From: a virus
Reading direction: 5' to 3' (one strand)
Virus record (IMG/VR): IMGVR_UViG_3300027586_000002
Span: 1 to 64,000 of that record
DNA: 64,000 nt
A model generated the notes under the pieces. The model saw nothing but the letters and a program-made list of their open reading frames with translations. It searched no databases and was not told the origin of the DNA. This document shows positions 11,743-63,758 of the stretch, one piece after another. The first letter of the stretch is position 1, and every line of letters starts with the position of its first letter. The position numbers were made by a program, and so were the translations under genes.

Positions 11743-12087
11743 ATGACACAAATCAAAAAACAAATACTTGAAGCAAAATACAAACCAAAATCTGTTGATA
11801 TGCTTGATCCTGGTGAATACTTTTGGTTTCAAAAGGATTACTGCAGGATGAGGATTAAGAGCGATGAGACGGTTAGGGTAGCTAACTTGACCACTAAAGA
11901 AGAGATGGAGCTACACCCTTATTGGAAGGTGAACCACGCGATTGACGAAGGAGATGAATCAGCAATTCCTAACTTTACACCTGAGGAAGAGGAAATCCTA
12001 GTTGCAAAGATCAAGAACCATGGCCCTACTGATAACTTTAAGTTCAAAGTTACAAATGAAGAACTAAGGACAGTCCAGCTTACGTAA
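11743..12087 (+). CDS. Hypothetical protein (ends RTVQLT)
   Basis: 114-aa ORF. Confidence 0.6.
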   Translation: MTQIKKQILEAKYKPKSVDMLDPGEYFWFQKDYCRMRIKSDETVRVANLTTKEEMELHPYWKVNHAIDEGDESAIPNFTPEEEEILVAKIKNHGPTDNFKFKVTNEELRTVQLT

Positions 12088-12133
12088 TAGGGAAGGGGCA
12101 GGTATAGGTATATACTATACTCCCTTCCCTATT
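12086..12133. terminator. Long inverted repeat / terminator-like hairpin
   Basis: AATAGGGAAGGGG...TCCCTTCCCTATT with an inner GTATAG/CTATAC stem. Confidence 0.6.
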
Positions 12134-12200
12134 CTATACTTGATATCTGCCTTCAATCCAAAGAAATAGAAAAAACTCAGTATTAAAATAAACCAACTAA

Positions 12201-12416
12201 ATGACAATTAGAGAATTAAAAGAACGTATAAAAAACGAACCAGACGACAAACTAGTTATTCTGTCCAAAGACGCAGAAGGTAATAACTTCTCGCCTCTTG
12301 TCCAAATATCTAACAGCTTTTACGTACCTATCACAAACTGGTACGGAGAGTTAGCCCAAAACAAAGACGGTAGCGATAAAACTGTTACATGCATCTGCCT
12401 CTGGCCCACCAACTAA
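12201..12416 (+). CDS. Small phage hypothetical protein
   Basis: MTIRELKERI..PDD..VILSKDAEGN pattern common in phage small ORFs. Confidence 0.65.
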   Translation: MTIRELKERIKNEPDDKLVILSKDAEGNNFSPLVQISNSFYVPITNWYGELAQNKDGSDKTVTCICLWPTN

Positions 12417-12655
12417 TAGTTAATGGTATAATCTATATATTTACAGGGCTGTTACTGGCATTGGTGCTTATCGCTCTAACCTACTTAATTCTTCATTGCT
12501 GGTACAAGCTTAGCTACTACTGCACTCTGTTACGAACTAAGTATCTATTATACCAATTACGTAAAGAATTCAGAAAGTCTAAAGTACCACCTAAAGTTGT
12601 AGATCAATATATGATGTCAATGAATCAGTTTATAACTAAGTTAGCTAAAAAGTAG
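12389..12655 (+). CDS. Small membrane protein (start uncertain)
   Basis: Single hydrophobic helix followed by a basic region. Confidence 0.4.
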   Translation: MHLPLAHQLIVNGIIYIFTGLLLALVLIALTYLILHCWYKLSYYCTLLRTKYLLYQLRKEFRKSKVPPKVVDQYMMSMNQFITKLAKK

Positions 12656-12688
12656 GCATTAACCTATAAGCTGTGTATCTCTTTTGTT

Positions 12689-12904
12689 ATGAAAAAAGTT
12701 GTTATAATTTCAACCTTAGTATCCTTCATCTCGCTTGTAGCTTTAGGCTATTATAGATCCTCCCTGTCAGACAATCGGGTTAAATCAACCGAAGGCTTTA
12801 TTTATAGAATCTATGTCATTGATAAGTGCGAGTACATTAGTTACGACAAAGGCATAAGCCATAAAGGTAATTGCACTAATTCGTTTCATAAGCTTTCTAA
12901 GTAG
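12689..12904 (+). CDS. Small secreted/membrane-anchored phage protein
   Basis: N-terminal hydrophobic helix; IDKCEYI...HKGNC motif. Confidence 0.65.
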   Translation: MKKVVIISTLVSFISLVALGYYRSSLSDNRVKSTEGFIYRIYVIDKCEYISYDKGISHKGNCTNSFHKLSK

Positions 12905-12907
12905 TCT

Positions 12908-13060
12908 ATGAAAGAAGAACTAAACGACTTTCTGGAGCAGTGCTACATCTGCAAGAAGTATTACGACTTGCAACAGATAATGTTTGGAAGTCACCATATT
13001 TGTCTAGATTGCTACAAAGACATGGACAAGGCATCATTGATCAATCCTAAGCCCTCCTAG
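12908..13060 (+). CDS. 50-aa zinc-finger protein (not in the ORF track)
   Basis: MKEELNDFLEQCYICKKYYDLQQIMFGSHHICLDCYKDMDKASLINPKPS: two CxxC pairs. Confidence 0.55.
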   Translation: MKEELNDFLEQCYICKKYYDLQQIMFGSHHICLDCYKDMDKASLINPKPS

Positions 13061-13083
13061 GGGCCTAGAAACACCATCGTAGT

Positions 13084-13371
13084 ATGAAATACAATATCAA
13101 ATTTAAGTCGCAGTATCCTTCACCTAAAACAGTTGTTCCAGTCCACCAAGCCAAGGATCAAACTAATAGCATACGCTGCTGTCTATCAGAAACAGTGTTT
13201 GATTTTTGCCATAATCAAGAGCTAACTATACATAAAGGACAGACTGGAGTTGCTACTAAGAATGGCGTTGGCTCTGGTAACTGGAACTTCTGGCCAGATC
13301 TTAAGGGTATAATACACCCCGTATGGGTCCATCGCTCTGAGTTGTTCTTTGAACATGACCCTATAGATTAA
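13084..13371 (+). CDS. Hypothetical protein (SH3-like C-terminus possible)
   Basis: 95-aa ORF. Confidence 0.5.
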   Translation: MKYNIKFKSQYPSPKTVVPVHQAKDQTNSIRCCLSETVFDFCHNQELTIHKGQTGVATKNGVGSGNWNFWPDLKGIIHPVWVHRSELFFEHDPID

Positions 13372-13376
13372 ATATC

Positions 13377-13613
13377 ATGACCCTTCGATTAATACATTTT
13401 GGAGTTGGAAATGACTACTATTGTGATATTGAGCTCTTCCGCCAGCTTAGAGAGTTTAAAGATGGTATCACCTTCCTGGAAGGTAGTGTAAATCTTGATT
13501 TATATAAAGCAGATCATAAGCCTAGCTTTGAAATTACTTTAGTTATATTTAATTGTAAAATATGTGAGTTTGTTATTTATAATATAAATCATGTTAAACC
13601 CAAGAAAGATTAA
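13377..13613 (+). CDS. Hypothetical protein
   Basis: 78-aa ORF. Confidence 0.55.
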   Translation: MTLRLIHFGVGNDYYCDIELFRQLREFKDGITFLEGSVNLDLYKADHKPSFEITLVIFNCKICEFVIYNINHVKPKKD

Positions 13614-15105: not shown

Positions 15106-15717
15106 ATGAGTAAACTAAGTTTGGAAGTTTTTAAAGACGAGAAGGCCCCAGCCATCGCGCTTTTATCCTGTGTTATTAAAACTTACGGGGTTGAAGCTTT
15201 TGACTGGGAGCCTGAAATATTAAGGGCTGAGATTGAACGGGATTTTGACATGACATTGTCTGACCTTCAATCTGACAAGATACAAGCAGCAGTAACAGTT
15301 ATAGCCAGCCCCTTCTTTCAAGAGCAATGGGAGGTGTTTGAGAAGATATGTCATATGTTTAATGGTGTACCAGATGAGTTTGACACAGCTAATCCACTTG
15401 AGGCCGAAGAGATAGCTCAAGCCATGGCTGATTACTATCTTTTAAACTATGACGATCAAGAGGCTGAACATAAACCTGAGCAAGAAGGAATGTTTGGAGA
15501 TCCAAGCGTTTTCTCAGACGAGATACGCGCGTACTGTGGAAGAGTATTCTATGAATATGGTTGCCACTCAGCGCCTACTATTTTTCCGACAGCTCTTTTA
15601 CCGGACGGGGTTGTTCCAGGCGATAATACTGAAAAAGATGGAGCACTCAAGGAAATCTTCGACGCACGTCTTGAATATGTTACAAATTATATAAAGAAAC
15701 TAACGCAGGAGGAATAA
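15106..15717 (+). CDS. Hypothetical acidic protein
   Basis: 203-aa ORF; coupled to the phosphatase. Confidence 0.7.
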   Translation: MSKLSLEVFKDEKAPAIALLSCVIKTYGVEAFDWEPEILRAEIERDFDMTLSDLQSDKIQAAVTVIASPFFQEQWEVFEKICHMFNGVPDEFDTANPLEAEEIAQAMADYYLLNYDDQEAEHKPEQEGMFGDPSVFSDEIRAYCGRVFYEYGCHSAPTIFPTALLPDGVVPGDNTEKDGALKEIFDARLEYVTNYIKKLTQEE

Positions 15718-16265
15718 TGGAACTTCAATTTTGTAGTCGGTACATGGCCAGGACAGTAACTGATGCTAAGCCAGATCACTGGCATATTATATCAATAGGT
15801 TCTTCCTCAGAGGAGAGCAAGAATAAAGCAGGTGAGACCGAAGGATGGCCCTCCTTGCCTAATGCTGCAGAAATACACAAGGCAGACTTTGATGACGCAG
15901 TATACAGACCAGCATCAGAGAAAAAATACAATTACGTCACTCCTGCGATAATTGAAGGAATGCTAGCAAAAGCTCGCGCCTGGCTGAAAGACAATAAGGC
16001 AGTCTTGGTTCATTGCCATGCCGGAATATCAAGAAGCACAGCCACAACACTGGTGATACTACTTGATAAATTTAAAGATGAGCCTGACCAGGTTCTACTT
16101 GCTTTATACGAGCTGGCTAAGATCAGCGAAAACATAATGCCTAATCCGATGGTTGTGTTATATGGGTTGGAAGTAATTTATAAGGATACTCCTCAGAAGG
16201 CTGAAAGAGTATATCGTCAAGTACTGGAGCACAGGATCTGGCGCAAGATGCAAACAGGTAAATGA
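15717..16265 (+). CDS. Cys-dependent (protein tyrosine / dual-specificity-like) phosphatase
   Basis: VLVHCHAGISRSTA (HCx5R), FDD general-acid loop, PNP.VV. Confidence 0.9.
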   Translation: MELQFCSRYMARTVTDAKPDHWHIISIGSSSEESKNKAGETEGWPSLPNAAEIHKADFDDAVYRPASEKKYNYVTPAIIEGMLAKARAWLKDNKAVLVHCHAGISRSTATTLVILLDKFKDEPDQVLLALYELAKISENIMPNPMVVLYGLEVIYKDTPQKAERVYRQVLEHRIWRKMQTGK

Positions 16266-16266
16266 T

Positions 16267-16533
16267 ATGGTCGATCTATCTAAACATAATATTGGTGATA
16301 AGTTTAAATTTACACCAAGAAGTAGTTGGGCAAAGTCTTGTAGAAGCGAGCAACAAGATTATATATTTGAGTTATATGAAGTAACTACTCACGAAAATGG
16401 ACAGATAGAGTATTGCCTGTGGCTTCCTAAAAATCATGATAATCGAATATACGTTACAGATCGTTATTTTGAAGACATAGATCTAATATTCGAAAATCTA
16501 GTTGAATTTAACACTAGGCGGATTTCCATATGA
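16267..16533 (+). CDS. Hypothetical protein (ends RRISI)
   Basis: 88-aa ORF; N-terminus resembles the next ORF (IGDKFKFTPRSSWAK / IDEFYRFNPTTDWAR). Confidence 0.6.
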   Translation: MVDLSKHNIGDKFKFTPRSSWAKSCRSEQQDYIFELYEVTTHENGQIEYCLWLPKNHDNRIYVTDRYFEDIDLIFENLVEFNTRRISI

Positions 16534-16829
16534 ATCAGGACCAAATAAAGATCGACGAGTTTTATAGGTTTAATCCAACTACTGATTGGGCCAGGAGGAA
16601 CCAACTAAAAAGGTTAAACCATCCTTGTATCTGTGTTTGTAAAACAGCCTTCACCAATAAAGGAATAAACTACTATAACTTCATGTTTCATAACGGGCAT
16701 ACATTGTGCTGCACTTCAGAAGATGTGGCACCATTGCTAGATAAAAACCTAGACATAGTTAAAGCTGATTTCAAGCACTCACAAGCATATTACAATGACC
16801 CAACCTATTTTAGAAAGATCCAGTTATAG
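16530..16829 (+). CDS. Hypothetical protein (ends RKIQL)
   Basis: 99-aa ORF; likely paralog of the upstream ORF. Confidence 0.6.
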   Translation: MNQDQIKIDEFYRFNPTTDWARRNQLKRLNHPCICVCKTAFTNKGINYYNFMFHNGHTLCCTSEDVAPLLDKNLDIVKADFKHSQAYYNDPTYFRKIQL

Positions 16830-18865: not shown

Positions 18866-19822
18866 ATGCAAGCAAAGTTAGTTAAGTTCATCCACCTGCG
18901 GCGATTTGTAGCAGACGCTAAAGGAGCCATCAAATTCTCCTCCGTGTCCTTCCTCCGGCACAACAGCCTTCTCGGCTATATGTTGCATACCGGAGGAACC
19001 GCGTTGGGAGTTGTTTATAATAAAGCAAAGAAAGTCTACGGACTGGTTTCAGTTCATGTTTCTACCAAAGATATATATAATAAAAAGACCGGTAGGATCA
19101 TACTTAATCAATGTGTTAACCACATGTCGAAGTTGAATACCAGCTTGAACTTGGACAAGCCACAGTCAGTGCGGGTTCCACTAAACTCATATCTGAAAGA
19201 AAAAGCCCGTCGTGAGCTACTTGAAAATACCGTAGTGGAAAAACAGGTGGAGCTCAACATAATGAGTGGTTCAGGTAAAGCTAGCTCAGTCATACAATCA
19301 ACCGCCGACCAGTTGTCTAAGTTGAGAAATCAGCTGAGCACACTTGGTCAAACCAAGAAACAATATGAGTATCGGTTCTGCTGGTATTCTAATATTAACA
19401 AAATGCTCACAGCATTGTCAACGGCTGCAAGAGTTATGCCTGATTCGATATTCGAGCCGCTGAAGTTAAGCGGCTGCTATCAGATCAGGTATGACGGTGC
19501 ATGTAAGGCCTTTAGACTTGTTGTCCTTGGAATACCTGAGCCTGGTCACTTTACAGTTGCATTTATCTCCACCGATGCACCATACAATCGTTGGGCTAGC
19601 CCTGCTACGATAACCTCGTTATACTTGACTCCAGAGAATCGTAAAATACTGAAACTTGATAGTGTCGCGTTGGTTCCGTTCAAGGAAAAATACGTATTGC
19701 AACTCCCGGTCGGTGCAGCACCTATGACGGTAACAAAGCTCGGCCGCTCTAGCCCAGCAAAACTAAAGATTAATACTGGAGCTAAGACTTTGAAGCTAGT
19801 CACGGTCGCGTCTGGAAAATAA
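18866..19822 (+). CDS. Hypothetical protein
   Basis: 318-aa ORF followed by the hairpin ACCGGGGAGCAGG/CTTGCTCCCCGGT. Confidence 0.65.
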   Translation: MQAKLVKFIHLRRFVADAKGAIKFSSVSFLRHNSLLGYMLHTGGTALGVVYNKAKKVYGLVSVHVSTKDIYNKKTGRIILNQCVNHMSKLNTSLNLDKPQSVRVPLNSYLKEKARRELLENTVVEKQVELNIMSGSGKASSVIQSTADQLSKLRNQLSTLGQTKKQYEYRFCWYSNINKMLTALSTAARVMPDSIFEPLKLSGCYQIRYDGACKAFRLVVLGIPEPGHFTVAFISTDAPYNRWASPATITSLYLTPENRKILKLDSVALVPFKEKYVLQLPVGAAPMTVTKLGRSSPAKLKINTGAKTLKLVTVASGK

Positions 19823-20146: not shown

Positions 20147-20457
20147 ATGAAGATTTAATTACAATAGATGATATATTTATAAAATATGATAGCAGTCTGT
20201 TTGGTGGGAACAAAGGAATGTTGATTAAGCAATTATCTGAGTTAACAGAGAGTTCCCCACAGTTTAATAGCACAATGTCCGTATTGCTTTATTTTAACAG
20301 CTTAAGTTGGGATGAAGCTTCATACCCATTTATAAAATTTAAAAAGGTGGCGCTTCGGAAATATGTGCCTTCCAACACAAAACTCTCCATTAAAAAGAGA
20401 GTATTAACTTTTAAAAAAAAATTCAAAAAAACAAAATTAAAAACTCATGCCCACTGA
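20143..20457 (+). CDS. Hypothetical protein
   Basis: 104-aa ORF with ATGA overlap. Confidence 0.5.
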   Translation: MNEDLITIDDIFIKYDSSLFGGNKGMLIKQLSELTESSPQFNSTMSVLLYFNSLSWDEASYPFIKFKKVALRKYVPSNTKLSIKKRVLTFKKKFKKTKLKTHAH

Positions 20458-22054
20458 AACAAAATCCAACGAAGGTTCCAAGACAACACATAAACAGAGT
20501 AAGGGTCAAAGCAAACTATCATTCAGAGATCAGCTGATGATTTACAGCAAGGCCGCCACTCCTTTCCTATGGGTCACTACTCATGAAGAAAAGAGGGTTA
20601 CGAATGCTATATATGACGCCACCAAAGATGACAATGACCGCAAGGTGCTTGAATGGGATGGGCTTAACGGTCTACGGTTCAAAGGCAAAGACGGTAAGTA
20701 TAACTCAATTCAAGATACATCCATCAAGGACGTTATCGAAAAAATTAGAAACATGCCAGAATGCCCTCGACTATTCGTGATGAAGGACTTTCATCATTGG
20801 ATTGAGTCTCCCGGGATCATTCGTGGACTGAGAAATCTAATCCATATCTTAAAAGCCAAGGGAAGCACGCTAATCTTCGTGTCACCATTGGTCAAGATCC
20901 CGACTGAGCTGTCCAAGGATATAACACTTCTCGAATACAATCTGCCAGACGAAAAGGAGATTTCCGAGGGAATTGAATTCATACGTGCTTCCGTCAAACA
21001 ACTGTCCGGCAAAGACCTAGAGTTGTCTGATGACGTCAAAACAAATCTGATTATATCTGCCAAAGGTCTTACTGCCAATGAAGCAGAAAATGCTATAACT
21101 ATAGCTCTCGTTAAGCACAAAGAATTCAACGCCGCCGTAGTCAAAGAGGTGTTTGAAGAAAAGGTGCGTCAAGTGCAATATAGTAGCAATCTCACACATG
21201 TTGAAACTGGTATTTCGTTTGACCAAGTGGGTGGCATGATTGGATTGAAAGATTGGCTTAAAACTCGTGCCCTGGCGTTCAGTTCAGAGGCAAAAGAATA
21301 CGGACTACCAAAGCCCCGAGGCATCCTGCTTGCAGGTGTTCCAGGAACAGGTAAGTCATTGATAGCAAAAGCCATTGCCCAAGAACTTGGTGTTCCCATG
21401 TTCCAGGCAGACGTTGGTGCTTTATTTGGAAAATATGTTGGGGAGACTGAATCAAACTTCCGCAATATGCTATCAACAGTCGACAGCATTGGTCGCTGTG
21501 TTTTATTCATTGATGAAATTGAAAAAGGTCTCTCACGCCAGGCTGTGTCCGGCTCTGGAGATACTGGAACAAGCTCCCGTGCTTTTGGCACGCTGCTAAC
21601 ATGGCTGTCCGACCACACCTCTGAGGTGTTTGTCGTAGGCACATCAAACGACTTCACAATCTTACCTCCTGCGCTCATTCGCAAAGGACGGTTTGACGAA
21701 GTGTTCTGGCTCGACCTTCCTTCCGCTACAGAGCGTGAGGAAGTCTGCGCAGTCCAGCTCAAAAAGTATAAGCGTAGTCCTAAAGAGTTCGATCTAAAGG
21801 CACTCGCAGCCGCAACTAAAGGCTTTTCTGGCTCAGAAATTGAGCAGTTGATAGTGGCTACAATGTATCGTTGCTTCCCTAAGGACAAAGATATTGATAC
21901 TGAAGAACTAGTTCTTGAAGCCAAGAGCATAATACCACACTCAATCACCAATCAGGATGCGCTCCATGATATGCGTGATCAAGCGAAAGGCAAGCTCCGC
22001 TCCGTCCAAGAGATGGGCGTGGTGGGTAGCACAACAAAGAAAGTAGCAATTTAA
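20447..22054 (+). CDS. AAA+ ATPase, Ycf46-like
   Basis: N-terminal T.EE.R, MKDFH and LP...EI motifs; GVPGTGKS; LFIDEIEK; TSN; RKGRFDEVF. Confidence 0.9.
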   Translation: MPTETKSNEGSKTTHKQSKGQSKLSFRDQLMIYSKAATPFLWVTTHEEKRVTNAIYDATKDDNDRKVLEWDGLNGLRFKGKDGKYNSIQDTSIKDVIEKIRNMPECPRLFVMKDFHHWIESPGIIRGLRNLIHILKAKGSTLIFVSPLVKIPTELSKDITLLEYNLPDEKEISEGIEFIRASVKQLSGKDLELSDDVKTNLIISAKGLTANEAENAITIALVKHKEFNAAVVKEVFEEKVRQVQYSSNLTHVETGISFDQVGGMIGLKDWLKTRALAFSSEAKEYGLPKPRGILLAGVPGTGKSLIAKAIAQELGVPMFQADVGALFGKYVGETESNFRNMLSTVDSIGRCVLFIDEIEKGLSRQAVSGSGDTGTSSRAFGTLLTWLSDHTSEVFVVGTSNDFTILPPALIRKGRFDEVFWLDLPSATEREEVCAVQLKKYKRSPKEFDLKALAAATKGFSGSEIEQLIVATMYRCFPKDKDIDTEELVLEAKSIIPHSITNQDALHDMRDQAKGKLRSVQEMGVVGSTTKKVAI

Positions 22055-22993: not shown

Positions 22994-23386
22994 ATGAGTC
23001 ATACCGTAAAAATTAAAACATTATTCAAAGATCTTAACGTCTTCAAAAAGGCGTTGGAAAAATTCGGATGGACTGTGAAGGAGAACGAAAAGATCCGCAC
23101 ATACCCGTCAGACTCAGCCCGTAATACTGTTTACAAGTATGTCGCCGTAAACCCCAAGCAGGACGGCTACGACATAGGCGTAGGCCAGAAGGAAGATGGC
23201 GAACTGGAATTGTTTGCAGACTTCTATGATGGTTCCATCGCAGCCGGCCTGGGGCAGGACTTGCAGAAGCTTCGCCAGGAGTATTCAAAACAACTGACCA
23301 TTGATGAGATGACATTCAATGGATACACAGTCGAGGAAAGCACCGACAATAACGGAAACATTAGCCTAGAGTTCACAAAGGCCTAA
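22994..23386 (+). CDS. DUF1257 / Ycf35-like protein
   Basis: MSHTVKIKT..KD...KKAL..GW, YDIG, AD.Y, L.QEY, GY.VEE. Confidence 0.8.
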   Translation: MSHTVKIKTLFKDLNVFKKALEKFGWTVKENEKIRTYPSDSARNTVYKYVAVNPKQDGYDIGVGQKEDGELELFADFYDGSIAAGLGQDLQKLRQEYSKQLTIDEMTFNGYTVEESTDNNGNISLEFTKA

Positions 23387-23653: not shown

Positions 23654-23848
23654 ATGACTAAAGTAACTGTAACTATCGACAAGAGTGGTGGCGTCAAGAT
23701 TGAAAATGTCTGTGGCGCAGGCGGAAAATGCGAGGAAGAGACCGCCTCGCTAGAGCAACGTCTCGGAGGTAAAACCTCTGAACGCGAATCCACCGACGAG
23801 CTTTACAAGCCCGTCGAGTGCGGCAACCATGTTGAAGCTGGAGGCTAA
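23654..23848 (+). CDS. DUF2997 family protein
   Basis: VTVTIDKSGGV.IE...G.G..C...T..LE..LG...T.E.Y. Confidence 0.8.
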   Translation: MTKVTVTIDKSGGVKIENVCGAGGKCEEETASLEQRLGGKTSERESTDELYKPVECGNHVEAGG

Positions 23849-23851: not shown

Positions 23852-24094
23852 ATGAAAGTTATTATTTCCCCTCAAGGCGAAATACATGCCGTTTGGAACG
23901 ACCAGTTAAACGCAATACCAGGCCACAAGATAATGGAGCGCGCATCTAACGTGGAGTTCAACCATGCAAAACAAGAGTGGGAAGCTAGACTTCCTAACGG
24001 AGAGCTTATAGCTCATGGGCATCAGCGTGATGCTGTGATAGCTGAAGAGGTTAAAGTTGTTGAAAAGCTGCTAGCACAACGCTTGGCAGCCTAA
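23852..24094 (+). CDS. Conserved hypothetical protein often found near DUF1257/DUF2997
   Basis: ISPQG.I..VW.D, RASNVEF...W.A.L, R..VIAEE. Confidence 0.65.
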   Translation: MKVIISPQGEIHAVWNDQLNAIPGHKIMERASNVEFNHAKQEWEARLPNGELIAHGHQRDAVIAEEVKVVEKLLAQRLAA

Positions 24095-26525: not shown

Positions 26526-26921
26526 ATGGCAGGACATTACATACTAAATTCGGACCACACGACCAAAGTAGTATCGGAGCTAAAGTGGGCTAACTGGATG
26601 GCCTCCAATTCTCGACGTGTAGCCCACGACACAATATTGGGCGTTGAAATATCAACAGTTTTTTTAGGTCTAGATCATAACTATAGTACAGTGGGTGCTC
26701 CTGTGCTATTCGAAACGCTGGCTTTTGGTTTACCTGAAGCAGGTCAGCTAACAGCCAGGTATTGTACATGGGCCGAGGCTGTTGCCGGTCATGAGATGAT
26801 GAAAGAATCAATAGTTAAAAAAATGGAAACCTCTGAAGAGGTGGTAAAAGAAAGTAACATTATTATATCTCAGCTTAAAGAAGTTGACGCCCAATATTTA
26901 TCTAGAAAGATACAGTTATGA
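26526..26921 (+). CDS. Conserved phage hypothetical protein (ends RKIQL)
   Basis: STVFLGLDH...LFET..F...RY.TW.EA..GH motif. Confidence 0.75.
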   Translation: MAGHYILNSDHTTKVVSELKWANWMASNSRRVAHDTILGVEISTVFLGLDHNYSTVGAPVLFETLAFGLPEAGQLTARYCTWAEAVAGHEMMKESIVKKMETSEEVVKESNIIISQLKEVDAQYLSRKIQL

Positions 26922-47632: not shown

Positions 47633-48055
47633 ATGCCATCAGTAGTAGAATCAAAAACATTGTTTTATAAAGCAGGCGCAAGTGATAAGTTTTATCACAC
47701 GGAACTCTATAAGGTGTCAGATCAAGAATACTATATATTTGCATTCTATGGTAGAAGACCAATGGGTAGTGTCACACCTAATGTTTCGTTTAGGCTAAAA
47801 AACCACGCGCCGCTAACCAAGCCTGCCGCTTTTCTTGTATATGAGGACTTACTTTATAGTAAGACACAGCACAATTATTATGAATCAGAAGTCCCTCCAC
47901 AAACTAATTTAGAGTACATACATCAAAAGAGCAAACTTATACGCAATGTATGGCTTAATAACGTTGGAATAAGAACAGCAGCCAAGTCCAAAGATGAAAA
48001 ATTAATGGACAAGGTTATTCTTAAAGAAGAACCATTACGTCGAATTCAAATCTAA
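47633..48055 (+). CDS. WGR-domain protein (ends RRIQI)
   Basis: SDKFY...FYGR...K....Y. Confidence 0.75.
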   Translation: MPSVVESKTLFYKAGASDKFYHTELYKVSDQEYYIFAFYGRRPMGSVTPNVSFRLKNHAPLTKPAAFLVYEDLLYSKTQHNYYESEVPPQTNLEYIHQKSKLIRNVWLNNVGIRTAAKSKDEKLMDKVILKEEPLRRIQI

Positions 48056-49749: not shown

Positions 49750-49770
49750 TCTTAAGGCAGGTATAATACT
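49712..49770 (+). promoter_or_regulatory. Putative promoter: C-rich tract plus GGTATAAT
   Basis: CCCTCCCTCCCGCCCC...GGTATAAT at 49760-49767, ~100 bp upstream of a high-GC ORF. Confidence 0.55.
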
Positions 49771-49865
49771 ATGGTGAAAGGCTAACTGCCTGACCATGTT
49801 TATACCTGTGTACCTTCAGGCATGAACATCTACAACGACAAAGGTAGAAGTGAGAGCAAAAAGTT

Positions 49866-50486
49866 ATGAAAAAAATCATTGTAAAGTTGTTGGCGTGGTG
49901 GCAGACACAGTTCTTGCGGCCCGCGTGGGATGAGGCCGACCGTCTCGAGAAGGTCTCCGCCGACGCCGCCACCCTTGCGGCCGAGAAAAAGCCCGACGAG
50001 CCCAAGGCCGACGAGAAGAAAAAGGACAAGAAGGAAAACGCCGAGAAGAAGGACGACGAGAAGAAGGTGACTCACACTCACTACGTCGCGGACCTTGACC
50101 GCCGTGGTTCGCTGGCGGTCGCGGTAGTGGTTCTGGTTCTGCTGGCTTCGGTCGCCTGGTTCGGCGGCCGGGAGATAGTCAGGATCGGGAGCGAAGAATT
50201 GCAGAAGGAATGGCAGAAAGCCTTCCCCACCACGGCGCCTAAGAAATCCCAGCCGGTGGTGAAAGTGCTCCCCGCCGCGCCAAGACCGCCGCTGCCCTAT
50301 AAGGGCAACCTGGCGGAGACGGTAGGATTCTTCGCAGCACGTCGCATTGACGCAGCCACGGCCAAGATGGCGCGGCTGGAGGGATGGAGCCGCATGCCAG
50401 ATAAATCATTCGCCGCCGGCCGATGGGTAGCATGGGCGGGCGGCGAAGTGGTCACGTATGACTACGTGGCCCAGAAATGGGAGTGA
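49866..50486 (+). CDS. High-GC single-pass membrane protein
   Basis: K/E/D-rich tract, TM LAVAVVVLVLLASVAWFGG; G/C-ending codons. Confidence 0.7.
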   Translation: MKKIIVKLLAWWQTQFLRPAWDEADRLEKVSADAATLAAEKKPDEPKADEKKKDKKENAEKKDDEKKVTHTHYVADLDRRGSLAVAVVVLVLLASVAWFGGREIVRIGSEELQKEWQKAFPTTAPKKSQPVVKVLPAAPRPPLPYKGNLAETVGFFAARRIDAATAKMARLEGWSRMPDKSFAAGRWVAWAGGEVVTYDYVAQKWE

Positions 50487-50506
50487 CGGTGGAGTAGAAA
50501 TGTTAA

Positions 50507-50540
50507 AGAGTGGCACCTGGGAAAACCTGGGTGCCACTCT
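50507..50540 (+). terminator. Hairpin / terminator
   Basis: AGAGTGGCACC...GGTGCCACTCT. Confidence 0.6.
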
Positions 50541-50623
50541 GACTTATATAAATCAATTTTGATTAAAGAGCTAACTTTACTTTAGCTATTAGCTATTTAT
50601 ATTTTAAACCAGTAGTAATTTTT

Positions 50624-51520
50624 ATGAACACCGCATTAAATAACCAACTAGCAGAGCAATTGACAGCATCAGCTCCCAAATTAGTGTTAGTAGAAAATAA
50701 AGGCATTCCTGAAGTCACACAGGTTATGGCATCAATTGATAATCAGATAGCTTGCTTACAAGCAAACGCCGGCACGATAAACCTTGACCAAGAGATGCAA
50801 AAGCTTGGTCGTGGCTGGGTACGAGGCTCCAAAATTAACAATGTTAATAACGTACATATGTTAAAACAAATGTTGAGCCGTGTTACCAAATTGCTAGACA
50901 GAACCGATATGGCTGACGGAACCACAGCCTACAGGTTTTTCATACCTGACGAATATACAGCAGTGACATGCTGGGTCAGACTGCAAGAGCTAGGGCAAAG
51001 AAGGCTTGTGTTCAAGCCAAAGCATAATGTCTCAGGTCACTCCCGCAAGCCACAATTTGATTGCCAGATTGTTGTAGGCTACCGGTTGGCTATACCAGAG
51101 CTACATACTGAAGATGAAGCTTTCTTCTATGCTCCAGACGTAGCACCTATCGCTACAAATATAGTTACATTTGTAGTTAACACCAAAGAGAACAGGCTGG
51201 TAAAGTGGCTGCCTGGAGAAGACAAAGAGCGTTTTCGCCCTACCAGCGATCTTAAAACGCACTGGGTAAACTGCTGCAACTATCCAAAAGAGAAATATCA
51301 GCCTAAGGCTAAAAATGTGCCAGCTGAGTCAAAGCTGTCAGATAATAATATTACACTTACTCCAAGACCTATAATGTCGTCGCTCCCACCAATAATGGCA
51401 GTGAAACCTAAAATACAAGAAGAAGACGAGGTATCATTTGTATTTGCTCTAAAAGAGGAGCTAAAGAAAGATGGGCTGTTGATTTCTACCTTCGAGCAAA
51501 TGGGTATGTCAAAGCACTAA
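50624..51520 (+). CDS. Hypothetical protein
   Basis: 298-aa ORF. Confidence 0.7.
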   Translation: MNTALNNQLAEQLTASAPKLVLVENKGIPEVTQVMASIDNQIACLQANAGTINLDQEMQKLGRGWVRGSKINNVNNVHMLKQMLSRVTKLLDRTDMADGTTAYRFFIPDEYTAVTCWVRLQELGQRRLVFKPKHNVSGHSRKPQFDCQIVVGYRLAIPELHTEDEAFFYAPDVAPIATNIVTFVVNTKENRLVKWLPGEDKERFRPTSDLKTHWVNCCNYPKEKYQPKAKNVPAESKLSDNNITLTPRPIMSSLPPIMAVKPKIQEEDEVSFVFALKEELKKDGLLISTFEQMGMSKH

Positions 51521-51524
51521 CTAT

Positions 51525-51869
51525 ATGAATACAAAAGCAATAACACAGGTAGCGCTTGGGTTATTAGCGCTTGGGTTTTCAGCAATAACCGCCAAAGTTA
51601 TAGCTGATAGATATTACGATACTTCTAATATTCAAGTAGTCTATATAGCCGCCTTAGTGCTGGCTTCATTGGAAAATTTGGCAATGTTTGTTGTGTCTTT
51701 CTTTGTCTATGATGAAGAAGACATAAAAATACATAAAGTAGAGTTGGATAATATTGCGTTAAGAAGGGATAATATTGAGCTGCAAAGACAGTTAAACGCA
51801 GTCAATATATACACAGATCAACTGGAAAAAAATCAGAAGTCCAGGTCACCCCTCCAACACACTCGTTAA
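51525..51869 (+). CDS. Membrane protein with two TM helices and a coiled coil
   Basis: Two hydrophobic helices followed by a heptad pattern. Confidence 0.6.
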   Translation: MNTKAITQVALGLLALGFSAITAKVIADRYYDTSNIQVVYIAALVLASLENLAMFVVSFFVYDEEDIKIHKVELDNIALRRDNIELQRQLNAVNIYTDQLEKNQKSRSPLQHTR

Positions 51870-52136
51870 GGACTCAGCTACTGTTTCTGGCAATTTAGAC
51901 TTAACCTTCTTTATTGCCTTTAACAGTATAGCTCTGTCTTTCTTTGATTTGATTTGCCATTTAGCATAGGTGTTATTGCTTTTTTTATAAGTATAGGTAA
52001 AACAACTTCCACCAAAAAACTCCTTTAGTTTAAAAGTGAGTGGTTGTTTTGACATAGGTAATGATATGGTAATTTCTTTATACCTATTATTAATTGACAC
52101 ATTGGAATAAATTACGCCGAGCAAAAAAGAAATCAT
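51846..52136 (-). CDS. Degenerate LAGLIDADG-fold protein
   Basis: FLLGVIYSNVSI (no catalytic D/E), LKEFFGG, W.I.S...LL.AI; the track start at 52223 is an alternative. Confidence 0.5.
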   Translation of the reverse strand: MISFLLGVIYSNVSINNRYKEITISLPMSKQPLTFKLKEFFGGSCFTYTYKKSNNTYAKWQIKSKKDRAILLKAIKKVKSKLPETVAESLTSVLEG

Positions 52137-52331: not shown

Positions 52332-53864
52332 ATGCCCAAGAATAACGAAGTAGAAGTAGCAGACCAGCCATCAACGCAACAAACAAGCCAGGCCTTCGCA
52401 CAGTTGGAAGCCATGGAAATATTAGCTAAAGCTCTGGCAAGGGCCCAAAGCACACCATTCAAAGACATCACCGTGGTTCGCACAGGTGATCAAATTATAC
52501 TGCCTGAAGGCATGTCCTACGCCGACGCCCATGTGTGGCTGAGGAAGAAGGAAGATGCTGAGGAGAGTGTTGTAGCTGTCCATGCAGAAATCCCATGCTA
52601 TCCGTTGGATGGTATGTTGGCGCTGTCTAAAGCGCTACAAAGGATATATGGGTTTACAAGTTTGGCTGGTACGCCGACTTTCTTCGGCCAGGAGTTTCCT
52701 CCTGTGATTGTGCAAGTCCCAACGGGCGTGCATACCTCTGAGCCAGCCATTTATGGACGCATCCAACCGCCAACATTAGAGGGCGGATACCTGCAGCCTG
52801 TCGTGGGAAAGGAACAGAAATTCACAATCTCTGGTCAGGTAAAACGCAAGTTCGAAAAGGACGTTGAGCGCATATTCCAGGTTACGAGAGAGATTCTCGC
52901 TAACAGCAGCATATATAAAGGCCAGGCGATCATGATAGATCTTTCTTATCTCAATCGCCCTAATCATGAGTTTAATCCTGCCAACGATGCACCAAAGTTC
53001 ATGGACCTTACAGGTGTGAGCGAAGACAAGCTCATCCTTAACAAAGGAACAAAGTTCAGCCTCACAACAAGCATATATACATTGCTTGAGCAATCAGAAG
53101 CCTGCAAGGCTAACGGCATTACACTAAAGCATGGAGCATTGTTCATGGGCCCTTACGGCACCGGTAAAACCATGACTGCGCGGGTAATAGCACACAAAGC
53201 TACGACCAATAAGTGGACATTCATATATCTAAAGCAGCCTGATCATATTGCACACGCACTAAAATTGGCTGAGCAATATTCTCCTGCGGTGGTCTTTGCA
53301 GAGGACATTGACCAGGTCACCAATGGAGAGCGCGATGATAAGCTAAACAACATCCTTAACACATTGGACGGTATTGACACCAAAGACAAAGCGGTCATTA
53401 CTATTCTTACAACCAATCATCCTGAAAAAATAAACCCAGGCATCCTTAGAGCCGGGCGCATAGACTCAGTGATACATATGGACGCGCCTGACAGTGAGGC
53501 TGCGGAAAAATTCGTTAAGGTTTATACAGACAATGGCAGGCTGTTGTCTCCTGATATTAATTTGGAGCCTATCGGTCTGGCTCTCGCTGGATTCGTGCCG
53601 GCATTTATATCTGAAGCCGTCCAGCGCGCTAAGCGCAGGGCAATTTACCGTCATGGGGCGGATATCGCAGGCAAAGTCAGCGAAGAGGATCTCTGCCTCG
53701 CCGCCGCCGAGCTAAAGAATCATATCAAGATGGTCAATCGTGTGCAGCCGGCTTCACATGCTGAAAACACACTTGCAGCTCTGAACACACTGCTGCGACC
53801 AGTTGCAAACTTGGTAAACGAAGCTGAGGATAGGCTCATAGATTCAATTGAGTCATCGAAATAA
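52332..53864 (+). CDS. AAA+ ATPase
   Basis: GPYGTGKT, FAEDID, ILNTLDG, TTNHPEKI, RAGRID. Confidence 0.9.
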   Translation: MPKNNEVEVADQPSTQQTSQAFAQLEAMEILAKALARAQSTPFKDITVVRTGDQIILPEGMSYADAHVWLRKKEDAEESVVAVHAEIPCYPLDGMLALSKALQRIYGFTSLAGTPTFFGQEFPPVIVQVPTGVHTSEPAIYGRIQPPTLEGGYLQPVVGKEQKFTISGQVKRKFEKDVERIFQVTREILANSSIYKGQAIMIDLSYLNRPNHEFNPANDAPKFMDLTGVSEDKLILNKGTKFSLTTSIYTLLEQSEACKANGITLKHGALFMGPYGTGKTMTARVIAHKATTNKWTFIYLKQPDHIAHALKLAEQYSPAVVFAEDIDQVTNGERDDKLNNILNTLDGIDTKDKAVITILTTNHPEKINPGILRAGRIDSVIHMDAPDSEAAEKFVKVYTDNGRLLSPDINLEPIGLALAGFVPAFISEAVQRAKRRAIYRHGADIAGKVSEEDLCLAAAELKNHIKMVNRVQPASHAENTLAALNTLLRPVANLVNEAEDRLIDSIESSK

Positions 53865-58384: not shown

Positions 58385-59188
58385 ATGAAAAAAATCAATT
58401 TATTGAAACGGGCCGTTAAACAGAACGGACCAACTTATATTCTTGATGTCGAAATCATTTCGTCTGAAGGTATCACAAAGGATATATTTGTCAAGCAGAG
58501 GCGTAGAAATCTAAATAATACTTTTGATGATGTATTTGTAGCGATTGCAACTGTAGCTCAAATAGAAGATTTTGATATTGGTAGCCCAGCTGAAGATTCT
58601 ACCTATTTTAGAACTTCAAGCTTAGTTTTAGTTGGAACAAATCCCGCATTTCTAGAAGAGTTGTTTACTACTGTTTTATCAGAGGTACAACAATTAGTTG
58701 ACAACGCAGAAGTTTTAGAGGAAATTAAACCAGATGGCGTTTATGAAATAACCGCCGATACAATAGACGTTAATATGGGAATAGTACATACACATTATAG
58801 AATTCCGTTAATAGCCGCACCTTGCGGTGTAAATGAGGTGTTCACAGAAAGCAATCTGCAGAAGCATAGGGTAGGAAGTCAAAATACGCTTCTTCCTGGT
58901 TGGTTAAATACAGTTAGTGGTGTTGATCCTGCCGGTACTTATTTTAAATATAACATTGCTGTAGACATAACTCTTGGTTCTAAATGGCCAATAGCCTCAG
59001 AGTTCTTAGCTTATGCGCATATAGAGAATAATGGAAAGACAGAACAAAATGTATTAATAAATGCCAATGGTATATTCTGGAAGAGTAATAAGTTGGGAAC
59101 AGCACCGTGGCCAGTTGATTATGTTAACAGTGGGAATACAGGGATTGCAGCTAACGCTATTGTGCTAGTAATAGACTTTATAGTTTAA
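58385..59188 (+). CDS. Hypothetical protein, probably structural
   Basis: 267-aa beta-rich ORF. Confidence 0.65.
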   Translation: MKKINLLKRAVKQNGPTYILDVEIISSEGITKDIFVKQRRRNLNNTFDDVFVAIATVAQIEDFDIGSPAEDSTYFRTSSLVLVGTNPAFLEELFTTVLSEVQQLVDNAEVLEEIKPDGVYEITADTIDVNMGIVHTHYRIPLIAAPCGVNEVFTESNLQKHRVGSQNTLLPGWLNTVSGVDPAGTYFKYNIAVDITLGSKWPIASEFLAYAHIENNGKTEQNVLINANGIFWKSNKLGTAPWPVDYVNSGNTGIAANAIVLVIDFIV

Positions 59189-59448
59189 TGACCCGCACAA
59201 TTACAGCAAGTCACGGAATCTGGGCAGATGAGACGTCTGGAACAGCCTGGACTAGTTCCGAATCAACAACAAATATATCAACAGGCACATGGGCAATGGA
59301 CGTTAACATTGAATCCCCAGAAGTTACAGAGCTTAAAACAAGAGTAGATGTTCTAGAAAAAGAGCTATTGTTTATTAAATCAAGTTTAATGGGGGATGAA
59401 GATGGTAAAAATCCAGATCTTTATTTTCGCAAAATCGATTTCAAATAA
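59188..59448 (+). CDS. Hypothetical protein (short coiled coil; ends YFRKIDFK)
   Basis: 86-aa ORF. Confidence 0.55.
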   Translation: MTRTITASHGIWADETSGTAWTSSESTTNISTGTWAMDVNIESPEVTELKTRVDVLEKELLFIKSSLMGDEDGKNPDLYFRKIDFK

Positions 59449-60034: not shown

Positions 60035-60808
60035 ATGCCAAAAACAGAAAAAACGCCGGAAAGAAGAATTGATTTAACCGAAACAGTTAGTCGCCAGACA
60101 AATAAAAAATTGGCATTAGTAAGTCACATTCTTATCATTGATGAGAGTGGCTCAATGCAGTCTTGTGTAAAGGCAACCATTGAAGGTATTAATACTCAGA
60201 TAGCTACAATAAAAGAATCTGAAGCCACAGCTAAGATAGAAAATCTTATAACTTTAGTTGTATTTAATGACCAGCATCAATTTGTAGCCAAGGGAGTTTC
60301 ACCTGATGATGTGGAAACCTTGACCGCTGAGAAGTATAAGCCTACAGGCAATACGGCACTGTACGACACGATAGTCTCGGTCATTAAAAGCACAGAAGCA
60401 GACATCACCGCTGGCTCTAAAGTATTACTAAGTATTTTTACTGATGGGATGAATAACATATGTAAGAAGTATACCGCTTCTGATGCCGCTCGAGAAATAG
60501 AACGGGTACAACAAGTTGGATGGACTGTTACCTATGTAGGTGCAAATCAAGATGTGGGTGATGTCGCTTCGTCTCTTAATATACCATTGGGTAATGCTAT
60601 GTCCTATACTTCAACCAATGAAGGAGCTACGAGGGCCTTTGCTGCCTACGCCCGGAGCAGTACATCATATTGTATGGCTATTTCTGCTGACCAGCTAGAC
60701 CAAACTAGAGGAGTTAGCCGAAGCTTTTTCTCAAAAGAAGCCAAAGTTAAAGATGTATCAAGTACTACATCACTTCCTGATCTGCTTAAAAAGTCAGCGA
60801 TCAAATAA
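60035..60808 (+). CDS. von Willebrand factor A domain protein
   Basis: IIDESGSM (MIDAS), FND, G.TALYD, FTDG, YVGANQD. Confidence 0.9.
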   Translation: MPKTEKTPERRIDLTETVSRQTNKKLALVSHILIIDESGSMQSCVKATIEGINTQIATIKESEATAKIENLITLVVFNDQHQFVAKGVSPDDVETLTAEKYKPTGNTALYDTIVSVIKSTEADITAGSKVLLSIFTDGMNNICKKYTASDAAREIERVQQVGWTVTYVGANQDVGDVASSLNIPLGNAMSYTSTNEGATRAFAAYARSSTSYCMAISADQLDQTRGVSRSFFSKEAKVKDVSSTTSLPDLLKKSAIK

Positions 60809-61824: not shown

Positions 61825-62115
61825 ATGAATGAAGAACAACAAGAAGCATTAGCCTCTGCTATGACACAAGCCCAGGCTGCCATGGAAGTGTTGAGTGCTA
61901 GACTAATTCTTATTTCAAAGAAAAAAATGAAAGCTATCGACAAAAACTTTCTAATTAGTGGCATTCAAGAAGAAAAAAAGACCCTGCTTGACTCAAAAGT
62001 AAAACCATCACAAAAGACAGTGCTAACTCTTATGTACAAAATGGCCCTGCTGGCTTTTGGAGCAAAAGACAAAGATGTAATAGCTTTCAAATTGGCGATA
62101 GCTAATTTGCCTTAA
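61825..62115 (+). CDS. Hypothetical protein
   Basis: 96-aa helical ORF. Confidence 0.55.
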   Translation: MNEEQQEALASAMTQAQAAMEVLSARLILISKKKMKAIDKNFLISGIQEEKKTLLDSKVKPSQKTVLTLMYKMALLAFGAKDKDVIAFKLAIANLP

Positions 62116-62175
62116 AGTAATAAAAATAATTTGGTTCCTATATGCGCTAATTGTCACATAGGTTATTATCATCAC

Positions 62176-62251
62176 GGGGGCTGGGACTGCCTGGCGTGGT
62201 CATCTCATTTGCAATGAGAAAGTCAGACCGGTTCAACTCCGGTAGCCTCCA
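62176..62251 (+). tRNA. tRNA-Ala(UGC)
   Basis: GGGGGCT/AGCCTCC acceptor with G3:U70, TCTCA-TTTGCAA-TGAGA anticodon arm, ACCGG-TTCAACT-CCGGT T-arm. Confidence 0.88.
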
Positions 62252-62272
62252 ATCCTATTTAGAAGCAATTTT

Positions 62273-62500
62273 ATGACAGAAACAACAGAACTGCCGGCGA
62301 TCGAGTTTGTAATCAAACTCAATAATCCTGAATACAAACGTGAAGCTGATGAGCTTTACAAGTCTATTCAGGAACTTATATCAAGTGATACTTCAAAGAA
62401 AGCCTCCGAGCTAGACCCTAATCTATCTTTCAGAGTAGTGTTGATTGAACATGATGGTAGTGTGGAAAGCATGGAGCCTGTACGATACATTCAACTCTAA
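62273..62500 (+). CDS. Hypothetical protein (ends RYIQL)
   Basis: 75-aa ORF followed by the hairpin at 62516-62556. Confidence 0.6.
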   Translation: MTETTELPAIEFVIKLNNPEYKREADELYKSIQELISSDTSKKASELDPNLSFRVVLIEHDGSVESMEPVRYIQL

Positions 62501-62580
62501 GTTTAGATTATTGTGCTTGCTGCCTTTAGTTCGACATAATTATAAGGCAGCAAGCCGACATATAACAACAAACATTTCAC

Positions 62581-63078
62581 ATGAATATTATAATAAAACC
62601 ACTAAAAAAGAGACATAAACCAGTATTCAATACAATAAAAGAACTGCTTAGCTTTAAAGAAACCACAACATTTACAGAAATAGGAAGAATAGCAAAAATT
62701 AACAGTCTGGAGGTAATTCAGGTATGTAATAAGAATTCCGGTATGTTACATAAATATAACAATGGCAGTATAACCGGATTTTCTAGTGCGCCTATTACTG
62801 ATCTAAAGTTTAAGCTAGGCAAGACATTTAGATCTAATAAAATAGTTATTTCAAACGATGGGTTAAAAGCGGAGCTATTATTCTCAGGTCATGACGAGTT
62901 AAAAGCCACTTATAATTTTTCAACCTCTTTTAAATTGCACCAATATGACCCTTGGGCTAAAAAAGTTGTCATACCTGATACTGCAACGATTAGAACAGTT
63001 TTATCAGGTCATGGTATACAGGATGAGGTTGAGGTTGTTAAAGATCTTGATCTAGAACTTTATTGGGACGAAAAATGA
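62581..63078 (+). CDS. Hypothetical protein (possible N-terminal HTH)
   Basis: TTFTEIGRIAKINSLEV pattern. Confidence 0.55.
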   Translation: MNIIIKPLKKRHKPVFNTIKELLSFKETTTFTEIGRIAKINSLEVIQVCNKNSGMLHKYNNGSITGFSSAPITDLKFKLGKTFRSNKIVISNDGLKAELLFSGHDELKATYNFSTSFKLHQYDPWAKKVVIPDTATIRTVLSGHGIQDEVEVVKDLDLELYWDEK

Positions 63079-63122
63079 TAACTACATTACCCAGCCAAAA
63101 ATAGGATTAAATAAACTACGTG

Positions 63123-63422
63123 ATGAGAGTTAAAATAACAAAATTTGCAATATCAGACGAAACAGATGCACTTCCTCCTGCAGATAGGGATTCACATATA
63201 CCAGGGCGGGAACAAGCCGATAACTTAAGCCTTCCTATTGAGTATTGGATTGAGGGTCAAGCTGAGGAGCTGCCATGTGTAGGTCGCTGGTTTGTAATAA
63301 ACAGAGAAGTAAGGAATGGTGTTGTCACCCCAGGACTGTTTACTTCTTCTCCAATCGTCAAGATCAGTGGAGATATTTATGAGACAAGAAACTCTAAATA
63401 TCGAGTAGAACTTTTAAGTTAA
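63123..63422 (+). CDS. Conserved phage hypothetical protein
   Basis: Y.IEG....P.VG....R..RNG...G.F.SS.I..I....TRNS.Y. Confidence 0.65.
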   Translation: MRVKITKFAISDETDALPPADRDSHIPGREQADNLSLPIEYWIEGQAEELPCVGRWFVINREVRNGVVTPGLFTSSPIVKISGDIYETRNSKYRVELLS

Positions 63423-63423
63423 T

Positions 63424-63501
63424 GCACCTGTAGCTCAGCCTGGTTAGAGCAGCGCCCTTTTAAGGCGTTTGTCGCGCGTTCAACTCGCGCCAGGTGCACC
63501 A
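63424..63501 (+). tRNA. tRNA-Lys(UUU)
   Basis: GCACCTG/CAGGTGC acceptor, GCGCC-CTTTTAA-GGCGT anticodon arm, encoded ACCA. Confidence 0.93.
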
Positions 63502-63569
63502 CTTTATAAAAATTAATATGATAAAGTGTTAACAACCTTTCTAATTTAAGTAAACAACAATAACCCATA

Positions 63570-63758
63570 ATGGTTGACCAAAATATAATTCAACAACTCC
63601 GTGTGGTACTGCACAAGGCTACAGACATTTCAGTAGTATCGTCTGTAGAAGGTGACAATTTAAAATATGATATAAAGATAACTATACCTATGGAAGTAAA
63701 CAACATAGGCGCAGACGTTGGTCTAGTACTAAAGCCAGAGCGGCGAATTTCGATATGA
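63570..63758 (+). CDS. Hypothetical protein (ends RRISI)
   Basis: 62-aa ORF; ATGA overlap with the next ORF. Confidence 0.55.
   Translation: MVDQNIIQQLRVVLHKATDISVVSSVEGDNLKYDIKITIPMEVNNIGADVGLVLKPERRISI

Follow-up and report, generated by a model that had tools for sequence, protein, structure and literature searches.

C-terminal docking tails in described systems

Short docking tails organise the proteasome, sliding clamps and small heat-shock proteins (sHSPs), and a comparable code may operate on orphan proteins of a large phage. The stretch analysed here ("the window", 64,000 nucleotides) is the first 64 kb of a linear 106,940-bp phage contig from IMG/VR (IMGVR_UViG_3300027586_000002). 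Several small proteins encoded in it end in one and the same pentapeptide tag, R-[RKY]-I-[QS]-[IL]. Related phages carry tails of the same kind in flavours of their own, both on small proteins and on a Cdc48/p97-like AAA+ ATPase. We found no description of this tail in the searchable literature.

In proteasome activators a short C-terminal motif is carried by a classic-clade unfoldase as well as by unrelated proteins: HbYX is common to PAN/Rpt, Cdc48, Blm10/PA200, PI31 and Pba1-Pba2, while the mycobacterial GQYL is common to Mpa and Bpa. All of these tails address one multivalent receptor. The phage tails have a similar distribution over proteins. They differ in that the motif reads R-[RK]-Φ-x-Φ (Φ, hydrophobic residue) with no penultimate Tyr and in that no ring peptidase gene was found in the contigs scanned. 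Nor do activators offer a counterpart to the seven to about ten tagged proteins per phage or to the lineage flavours. The I-x-I anchor of sHSPs (...PRRIEIN in IbpA; compare the IPV motifs of BAG3) also consists of basic residues followed by aliphatic-x-aliphatic near the C-terminus, and the same peptide serves both self-assembly and partner recruitment. Unlike sHSPs, the phage carriers have no α-crystallin domain detectable with Pfam, their motif stands at the carboxylate itself and its common viral flavour is L-D-L.

In the clamp-binding consensus sequences (QL[SD]LF, QLxLxL, PIP box), hydrophobic residues come after a Gln, at positions 2, 4 and 5 (or 2, 4 and 6). The phage tails are instead basic at positions 1-2 and aliphatic at 3 and 5, and the patterns do not match. 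In phage T4, gp43, gp55 and gp33 bind the gp45 clamp via their tails (review PMC2988020), a phage precedent in which unrelated proteins with a common C-terminal peptide dock on a ring hub. The tagged genes of our contig, too, have a replication and repair context. No sliding clamp was found in Pfam scans of about 70 larger proteins of the contig. A resemblance to clamp-binding peptides or to the FtsZ C-terminal peptide was considered and dropped, as the register was wrong or only one family fitted.

Two further systems are relevant. Tails recognised by ClpX (LAA of ssrA, RRKKAI of MuA) and the XB peptide of SspB are short C-terminal sequences that bind to an AAA+ machine or to its N-domain, and the MuA tail has a similar basic-plus-aliphatic make-up. 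Unlike in ClpX systems, the phage ATPase family itself carries the tail, and the ATPase has no ClpX-like N-domain. Class II ligands of PDZ domains end in Φ-x-Φ-COOH, as do all seven tagged proteins of our contig (I-[QS]-[IL]-stop); unlike for such ligands, no reader matching PF13180 was found in the contigs scanned.

A pentapeptide tag on unrelated proteins

An earlier note on this DNA, made from the sequence alone, had listed six open reading frames (ORFs) ending exactly in R-[RKY]-I-[QS]-[IL]. All six were confirmed, and a seventh (RKISL) was found beyond the window. The strict motif thus occupies 7 of 176 C-termini of called proteins and none of 32,337 internal positions, while 0.0013 C-terminal matches are expected from composition. 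The note had also proposed a count against shuffled termini: 20,000 tail shuffles gave a mean of 0.006 matches and a maximum of two. In six-frame translation of the whole contig the motif was counted eight times, and in seven cases it immediately precedes the stop codon of a gene on the plus strand; about 0.002 would be expected. The motif was defined post hoc, after the data had been seen, and the excess is judged far too large for that to matter. An aliphatic-x-aliphatic core after basic residues is present in 7/7 tagged proteins.

BLASTP found no significant similarity among the seven tagged bodies, in agreement with the note's statement that they are unrelated. The only resemblance, weak and N-terminal, is between the products of the adjacent genes 16267 and 16530. 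The codons of the tail vary at all five positions, with Arg encoded by AGG, AGA, CGT, CGA or CGG, Ile by ATT, ATC or ATA, Ser by TCC, TCG or AGT and Leu by TTA or CTC. Stops overlap the next start in two of the seven genes (ATATGA at 16530 and 63755). Since the codons are varied and just these two stops overlap a start, a DNA-level explanation of the tails fails. Overlapping start signals, which the note had named as a possible cause, are lacking in the other five genes, and its reading of the varied codons as a mark of protein-level selection stands. The tag is real, strongly non-random, selected at the protein level and added onto unrelated bodies.

The note had further quoted four near matches: the AAA ATPase (KKVAI), 59188 (RKIDFK), 11743 (RTVQLT) and tmk (TRIGIH). 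The endings are as quoted. The looser motif of the family (R/K-x-Φ-x-Φ, followed by 0-1 residues) fits the first three; it does not fit tmk, and the tail of a tmk homologue in a relative differs. The 60035-60808 protein does carry RRIDL at residues 10-14; the "vWA" label given to it in the note remained unconfirmed, as Pfam returned no match at E ≤ 0.01.

Tagged proteins and their orthologues

All tagged genes are on the plus strand. Two of them are adjacent. 16267..16533 encodes 88 aa ending in RRISI (tail codons 16516-16530), and its stop overlaps the start of 16530..16829, the 99-aa product of which ends in DPTYFRKIQL (tail 16812-16826). In L004, a more distant syntenic phage with core proteins 50-68% identical to those of our phage, the gene in the slot of 16267 shows N-terminal resemblance and its product ends in RIIKLAL; the orthologue of 16530 (36% identity) ends in DPFYFRKIAV. 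Directly upstream of the pair lies 15717-16265, coding for a DSPc-like (dual-specificity-phosphatase-like) protein (E 1.5e-6, below the Pfam cut-off) that has a 50% identical counterpart in L004.

The 131-aa product of 26526..26921 ends in RKIQL (tail 26904-26918) and belongs to a widespread phage family. Its gene is located between those of DNA ligase and a Rad50-like protein. Of the 74 family matches, PRKIQL is kept in P0002 and P0003 only (81-82% identity), and the L004 orthologue (39% identity) ends in RKIKI. As the note had suggested checking, homologues without the tail exist: about 65 distant ones stop shortly past the conserved '...RYSTWAEAEAGH..MV' core, with unrelated tails and no extension. 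The AlphaFold2 (AF2) model has a confident domain at residues 1-95 followed by a long low-confidence helix, the tail having a predicted local distance difference test score (pLDDT) of about 56; no fold match was found for the model in the PDB. Four distant members of the family (P0068-P0071) end in HLRVV[KR] or HLRLVK, which we take to be reminiscent of the ClpX-binding tail of SspB. This suggests that the 26526 family repeatedly acquires C-terminal docking peptides.

The 140-aa product of 47633..48055 ends in EEPLRRIQI (tail 48038-48052) and is probably a small WGR-domain protein. The Pfam match is sub-threshold (E 0.05), Atlas features give 0.91, and the structure scores a template modelling (TM) value of 0.53-0.61 to WGR clusters. 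P0076, its orthologue at 70% identity, keeps RRIQI though the preceding residue has changed. BLASTP found no link between this protein and the WGR domain of the ligase, and none to the small tail-bearing protein in the L049 group.

The remaining tagged ORFs are 62273..62500 (75 aa, ending in EPVRYIQL; tail 62483-62497), 63570..63758 (62 aa, KPERRISI; tail 63741-63755) and the seventh one at contig 73374-73838. P0078, which is 97% identical to the 63570 protein, occurs on 22 contigs, the longest of 195,661 bp. Two more plus-strand ORFs may carry a degenerate tag with one extra residue. 59188..59448 encodes 86 aa ending in LYFRKIDFK, a tail that resembles that of the 16530 family. 11743..12087 encodes 114 aa ending in RTVQLT; its membership is uncertain, as the loose motif is expected about three times per genome by chance. 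PHROGs returned nothing for six of the tagged proteins and only a family of unknown function for the seventh (73374-73838); nothing was found either for 59188-59448, 18866-19822 and 23852-24094.

With orthologues at 36-82% identity keeping the tail while their bodies diverge, the alignments indicate that the tail is a secondary, conserved addition.

The tail of the ATPase family

The gene 20447..22054 (plus strand; Pfam AAA and AAA_lid_3) encodes a Cdc48/p97-like AAA+ ATPase that has a degenerate D1 and an active D2 and ends in TTKKVAI. Foldseek aligned the whole chain of its AF2 model (pLDDT 93) to the D1-D2 region of p97, Cdc48, Rix7 and NVL (E about 1e-22). Because the alignment to these D1-D2 proteins covers the whole length, the model identifies what looks like an N-domain as a degenerate D1.

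The N-terminal 290 residues were searched against 1.84 billion cluster representatives at E ≤ 1e-3. This returned 3570 representatives, mostly of about 520 residues and with the same architecture. Among 84 full-length representatives, each less than 50% identical to the others, 35 carry R-x-[ILVM]-x-[ILVMF] within the final ten positions (for example GRKIEL, TRKLEL, FRNIDI, TRKIKV and RRRIEF); tail shuffles yielded about 2, and internal windows matched at a rate of 2.4%. The usual ATPase ending in 79 IMG/VR loci is R-x-L/I-D-L/I/V at the C-terminus.

Of 64 distinct viral copies of the ATPase, 38 have the tail; in bacterial genome contigs it was found on 5 of 77 (Fisher p 4e-12), and four of these five are phage-like or adjoin DUF1257/DUF2997. 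Most cellular copies (Caldilineaceae, Acidobacteriota, cyanobacteria) end soon past '...R.WA..RAR.AS'. By this distribution of sequences, the tail is characteristic of the family's phage branch. Cellular homologues work without it, so the hexamer as such probably does not depend on the tail; more likely it was added for docking to a partner that is either phage-specific or of the host. These comparisons support a relation that is new: the pentapeptide matches the C-terminal signature of the phage ATPase's own family. Of the hubs that the earlier note had proposed, only the link to an AAA+ unfoldase thereby gained support.

Lineage-specific flavours of the tail

Tails of the same general pattern differ from one phage lineage to another. 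In the 151-kb G004 the ATPase ends in DRALDPFN, and at least eight non-paralogous proteins end in R-[RK]-L-[DE]-x-[DE]-L (RKLExDL-type). In the 68-kb G005 the ATPase tail DRKVTVDDL is accompanied by RRLDVGDDL, DRNLSFEL, ERNVTLSL and three RNI[ST]L.L tails (RNISLKL-type). The L044-L053 group has RKLSI followed by AIGNEE on the ATPase, EYFRKLSV on the DUF3150 protein and EHRKLSI on a small protein. LRHIAL of the G006:C1 ATPase stands beside IRKVEL, TRRIEL and PRKIDI. In the cultured Rhizobium phage L338C the ATPase ends in KRAGMSLDS and other proteins in RRKINLD, VRKVSLD and RRLIDLSD.

With paralogues removed beforehand, tails within a genome share 2.64 of 7 positions vs 2.10 for shuffled labels, a value reached in 0 of 10,000 permutations, so that the flavour of the tail is specific to each lineage. 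The tail ends at the exact C-terminus in 7/7 tags of our phage and 4/4 of G006:C1; in several other lineages 1-6 residues follow the core. In the lineage studied here it consists of five residues ending at the carboxylate and is found on small proteins far from the ATPase.

G006:C1 (L203-L213) is syntenic with our phage (TerL 55%, ATPase 48% identical). It is 211,238 bp long with identical ends and hence probably a complete genome. It was binned in an uncultured Sediminibacterium metagenome-assembled genome (MAG), which provides a weak lead that the group infects Bacteroidota.

Two observations on ATPase relatives may be added. The ATPase gene of G004 (L018 4190-6172) is interrupted: about 290 bp separate two ORFs of 306 and 256 aa, and an intron, frameshift or mobile insertion may be the cause. 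A more distant phage, L002 (IMG/VR 3300033145_001598, 1494-13123), has a 1311-aa relative of the ATPase, several neighbours of which have acidic tails rich in Leu (IDHLDL, DDRLDDLDIE, DDRLNLIDLD).

A proposed docking role and its alternatives

We consider it fairly probable that the pentapeptide is this lineage's version of a C-terminal docking tail of a phage Cdc48-like AAA+ module, with a receptor shared with the ATPase tails. The docking role is suggested by the analogy with HbYX/GQYL, sHSP I-x-I and clamp-binding tails, together with the distribution described above. The tail, of the pattern basic-basic-aliphatic-x-aliphatic and here ending at the free carboxylate, would belong to a widespread, uncharacterised gene module built around the unfoldase. 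In related phages it is carried by the ATPase itself, by the neighbouring DUF3150 protein and by small proteins, up to about ten in number. In our phage at least seven small proteins of unrelated sequence, including the WGR protein and the 26526 protein, would have acquired it. As a short strand, the tail may insert into a hydrophobic groove or pocket on a single multivalent receptor, the same one that would hold the six tails of the ATPase. The tagged proteins would thereby sit beside the unfoldase ring as clients, adaptors or regulators. As to the receptor, we would place it on the ATPase or another protein of the phage module with a little less than even confidence. A host oligomer such as an sHSP or a ring peptidase is nearly as likely, and a receptor of some other kind is somewhat less so.

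Several observations weigh against this explanation. The ATPase tail in our phage, KKVAI, fits the loose motif only (the family does carry R-x-Φ-x-Φ), and that of the L004 orthologue, PRQLVAKTV, hardly fits it. The monomer AF2 model leaves the ATPase's own tail undocked. Comparison of ATPase tails with those of their neighbours in 14 de-duplicated loci gave 2.21 vs 2.55 permuted, which is not significant; this test is noisy, and our phage was left out of it since KKVAI lacks Arg. Undetected paralogy among the small genes of G004 and G005 could inflate the homogeneity of flavours. In the 79 viral loci, each covering at most 10 kb on either side, the ATPase is the sole universal gene. Phage Corndog has an ATPase tail (RVLDL) but lacks DUF1257 and DUF2997 and shows no evident set of tagged proteins. 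The contig covers only about half of the genome (52% completeness by CheckV). Finally, that all tags bind one receptor is purely something we infer. The genome-wide docking code of the earlier note, addressed to a single hub, thus survives in part: the tag is real and selected and is linked to an AAA+ protein; the phage sHSP, phage PDZ and capsid versions of the hub found no support, and its singleness belongs to the interpretation.

No gene for a reader was detected in the phages themselves. Hsp20 (PF00011) had no match in our contig, G001, G003-G005 and the complete L338C, and none on G006:C1. PDZ_2 (PF13180, the sole PDZ model run) as well as ClpP and proteasome/HslV (PF00574, PF00227) had no match in our contig, G003-G005 and L338C. 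The phage Hsp20 or PDZ gene that the note had proposed to look for was thus not detected in the contigs scanned. The tagged genes are placed among early and replication genes with none in the structural block, a placement that gives no hint of the capsid interior as the hub. A single co-folding job, run without controls, on the ATPase, DUF1257, DUF2997 and residues 96-140 of the 47633 protein gave interface scores (ipSAE) of 0.00-0.01, which weigh on neither side of the question of binding. A trypsin-like protease (Trypsin_2, E 3e-14) is encoded at contig 98326-99243 (L006 14326-15243), adjoining the minus-strand structural block; it was rejected as a cytoplasmic reader, having an N-terminal signal peptide and no detected PDZ domain.

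Two alternatives place the receptor in the host. The tag could mimic the basic I-x-I anchor of a host sHSP and dock the tagged proteins and the ATPase hexamer into its β4/β8 groove. IbpA-type tails read P-R-R-I-E-I, and the tag resembles this anchor in register; many tails of the ATPase family read RKIEL, RRIEF, NRKIEVT or TRKVEVP. The only Hsp20 of the Sediminibacterium MAG, the putative host, ends in PKEISIL, and the lack of a tail in cellular ATPase homologues fits a host-directed add-on. However, sHSP anchors strongly prefer Ile or Val, while the commonest viral flavour is R-x-L-D-L. The exact C-terminal position of the seven tags here and four in G006:C1 is not required by the sHSP groove, and no Hsp20 was found in the phage contigs scanned. 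On balance we regard such mimicry as rather unlikely. The probability is smaller still that the tails dock onto a host ring peptidase (ClpP, HslV or 20S), with the ATPase forming an HbYX- or HslU-like hybrid protease and the tagged proteins acting as competitors, gate openers or assembly factors. An extreme C-terminal tail with a hydrophobic last residue, common to an unfoldase and non-ATPase proteins, is what such a system would present, and the ATPase is indeed classic-clade and Cdc48-like. Yet the penultimate Tyr that defines HbYX is absent: this position is Q or S, and Tyr occurs once, at -4. The 1-6 residues past the core in several lineages would block recognition of the carboxylate, and no ClpP or proteasome/HslV gene is present in our contig, the three related contigs and L338C.

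The tag might alternatively be a degron that times the destruction of early and middle phage proteins by a host AAA+ protease or through the pore of the phage unfoldase. With a pair of basic residues before an aliphatic C-terminus, the tag is similar to ClpX C-motif 2, and the ClpX recognition tail of MuA, RRKKAI, would be a parallel; the tagged genes lie among early and replication genes rather than structural ones, and the HLRVVK-like ends of the four distant 26526 relatives could be read in the same sense. A degron is, however, hard to rationalise on the long-lived ATPase itself and on DUF3150, and lineage-specific flavours are not expected if a conserved host protease is the reader; we consider this improbable. 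The last possibility is that the tails have no function and reflect chance, composition or a DNA-level constraint such as ribosome binding site or start overlap or terminators. Two of the seven stops do overlap the next start, and the AGGCGG that lies upstream of 16530 might also serve as a Shine-Dalgarno sequence. But the excess is more than 1000-fold, five of the seven tails have no overlapping downstream gene, codons vary throughout, and the tail persists in orthologues despite synonymous changes and changes next to it. This explanation is refuted for practical purposes.

Genomic setting

The contig probably derives from a genome of about 200 kb, since near-identical proteins were found on contigs of up to 195,661 bp. 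The closest orthologues mentioned above (P0002, P0003, P0076 and P0078) sit on contigs of 87-196 kb. A DNA search of GenBank phages with 44001-52000 gave zero matches, and IMG/VR searches for related loci with 47633 and with the TerL alignment also gave none.

Directly after the ATPase gene come three untailed genes: 22994..23386 (plus strand), coding for a DUF1257 (Ycf35-like) protein (Pfam E 2.8e-9), 23654..23848 (plus strand), coding for DUF2997 (Pfam E 3.2e-8 and alignment), and 23852-24094, coding for a highly conserved 80-aa protein. The trio is syntenic in L001, L004, L018, L023 and L122; DUF1257 orthologues are present in these five and in L017. In cyanobacteria DUF2997 and DUF1257 (ycf35) cluster with the ferredoxin gene fed7 (PMC4284462). 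DUF3150, which is present and tail-bearing in relatives, was not found in our contig, that is, in half of the genome.

Further downstream Pfam delineates a replication and repair block: an Mre11-like gene (24115), DNA ligase with a WGR domain (25393), a Rad50-like gene (26959), RNA ligases (29118 and 48496), helicase (30212), primase (32185), DnaB (33961) and RecA (45530). The N-terminal part of a 964-aa gene product (35358) matches annotated phage DNA polymerase genes. TerL (16861) is on the minus strand.

Besides the ATPase at 20447, the window encodes a second one of the classic AAA clade (52332-53864, 510 aa), which ends in DRLIDSIESSK; its N-terminal half (about 250 residues) has no assignment beyond weak nSTAND matches. 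A JAB-domain protein gene (43097-43612, Pfam Prok-JAB, E 2e-5) overlaps a gene for a ThiF/E1-like enzyme (43599-44192, E 7e-16), and the pair is located downstream of genes for 243-aa and 660-aa proteins without Pfam matches (window 40305-44192).

Significance for phage biology

If the pentapeptide is a docking tail of the Cdc48-like module, it may be part of an undescribed addressing system of large phages, in which an unfoldase and a changing set of small proteins, up to ten or more, are joined to a single receptor by a co-evolving peptide; alternatively, a host hub such as sHSP oligomers may be hijacked. We put this forward tentatively. The code is tied to a very common and unstudied phage ATPase, the 3570-representative family of which includes members in cultured phages of Mycobacterium, Pseudomonas, Rhizobium, Vibrio and Listeria. 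The tail provides a handle for placing dozens of "hypothetical" small phage proteins in one pathway and a simple bait for the receptor, and hence for the function of the ATPase module. As cultured phage L338C shows the phenomenon, it can be tested at the bench. Should the proposed role be true, the tail would represent a means, encoded by the virus and independent of ubiquitin, of gathering clients at a machine that remodels proteins, and it would be a phage invention, since the cellular (Ycf46-like) branch of the ATPase lacks it.

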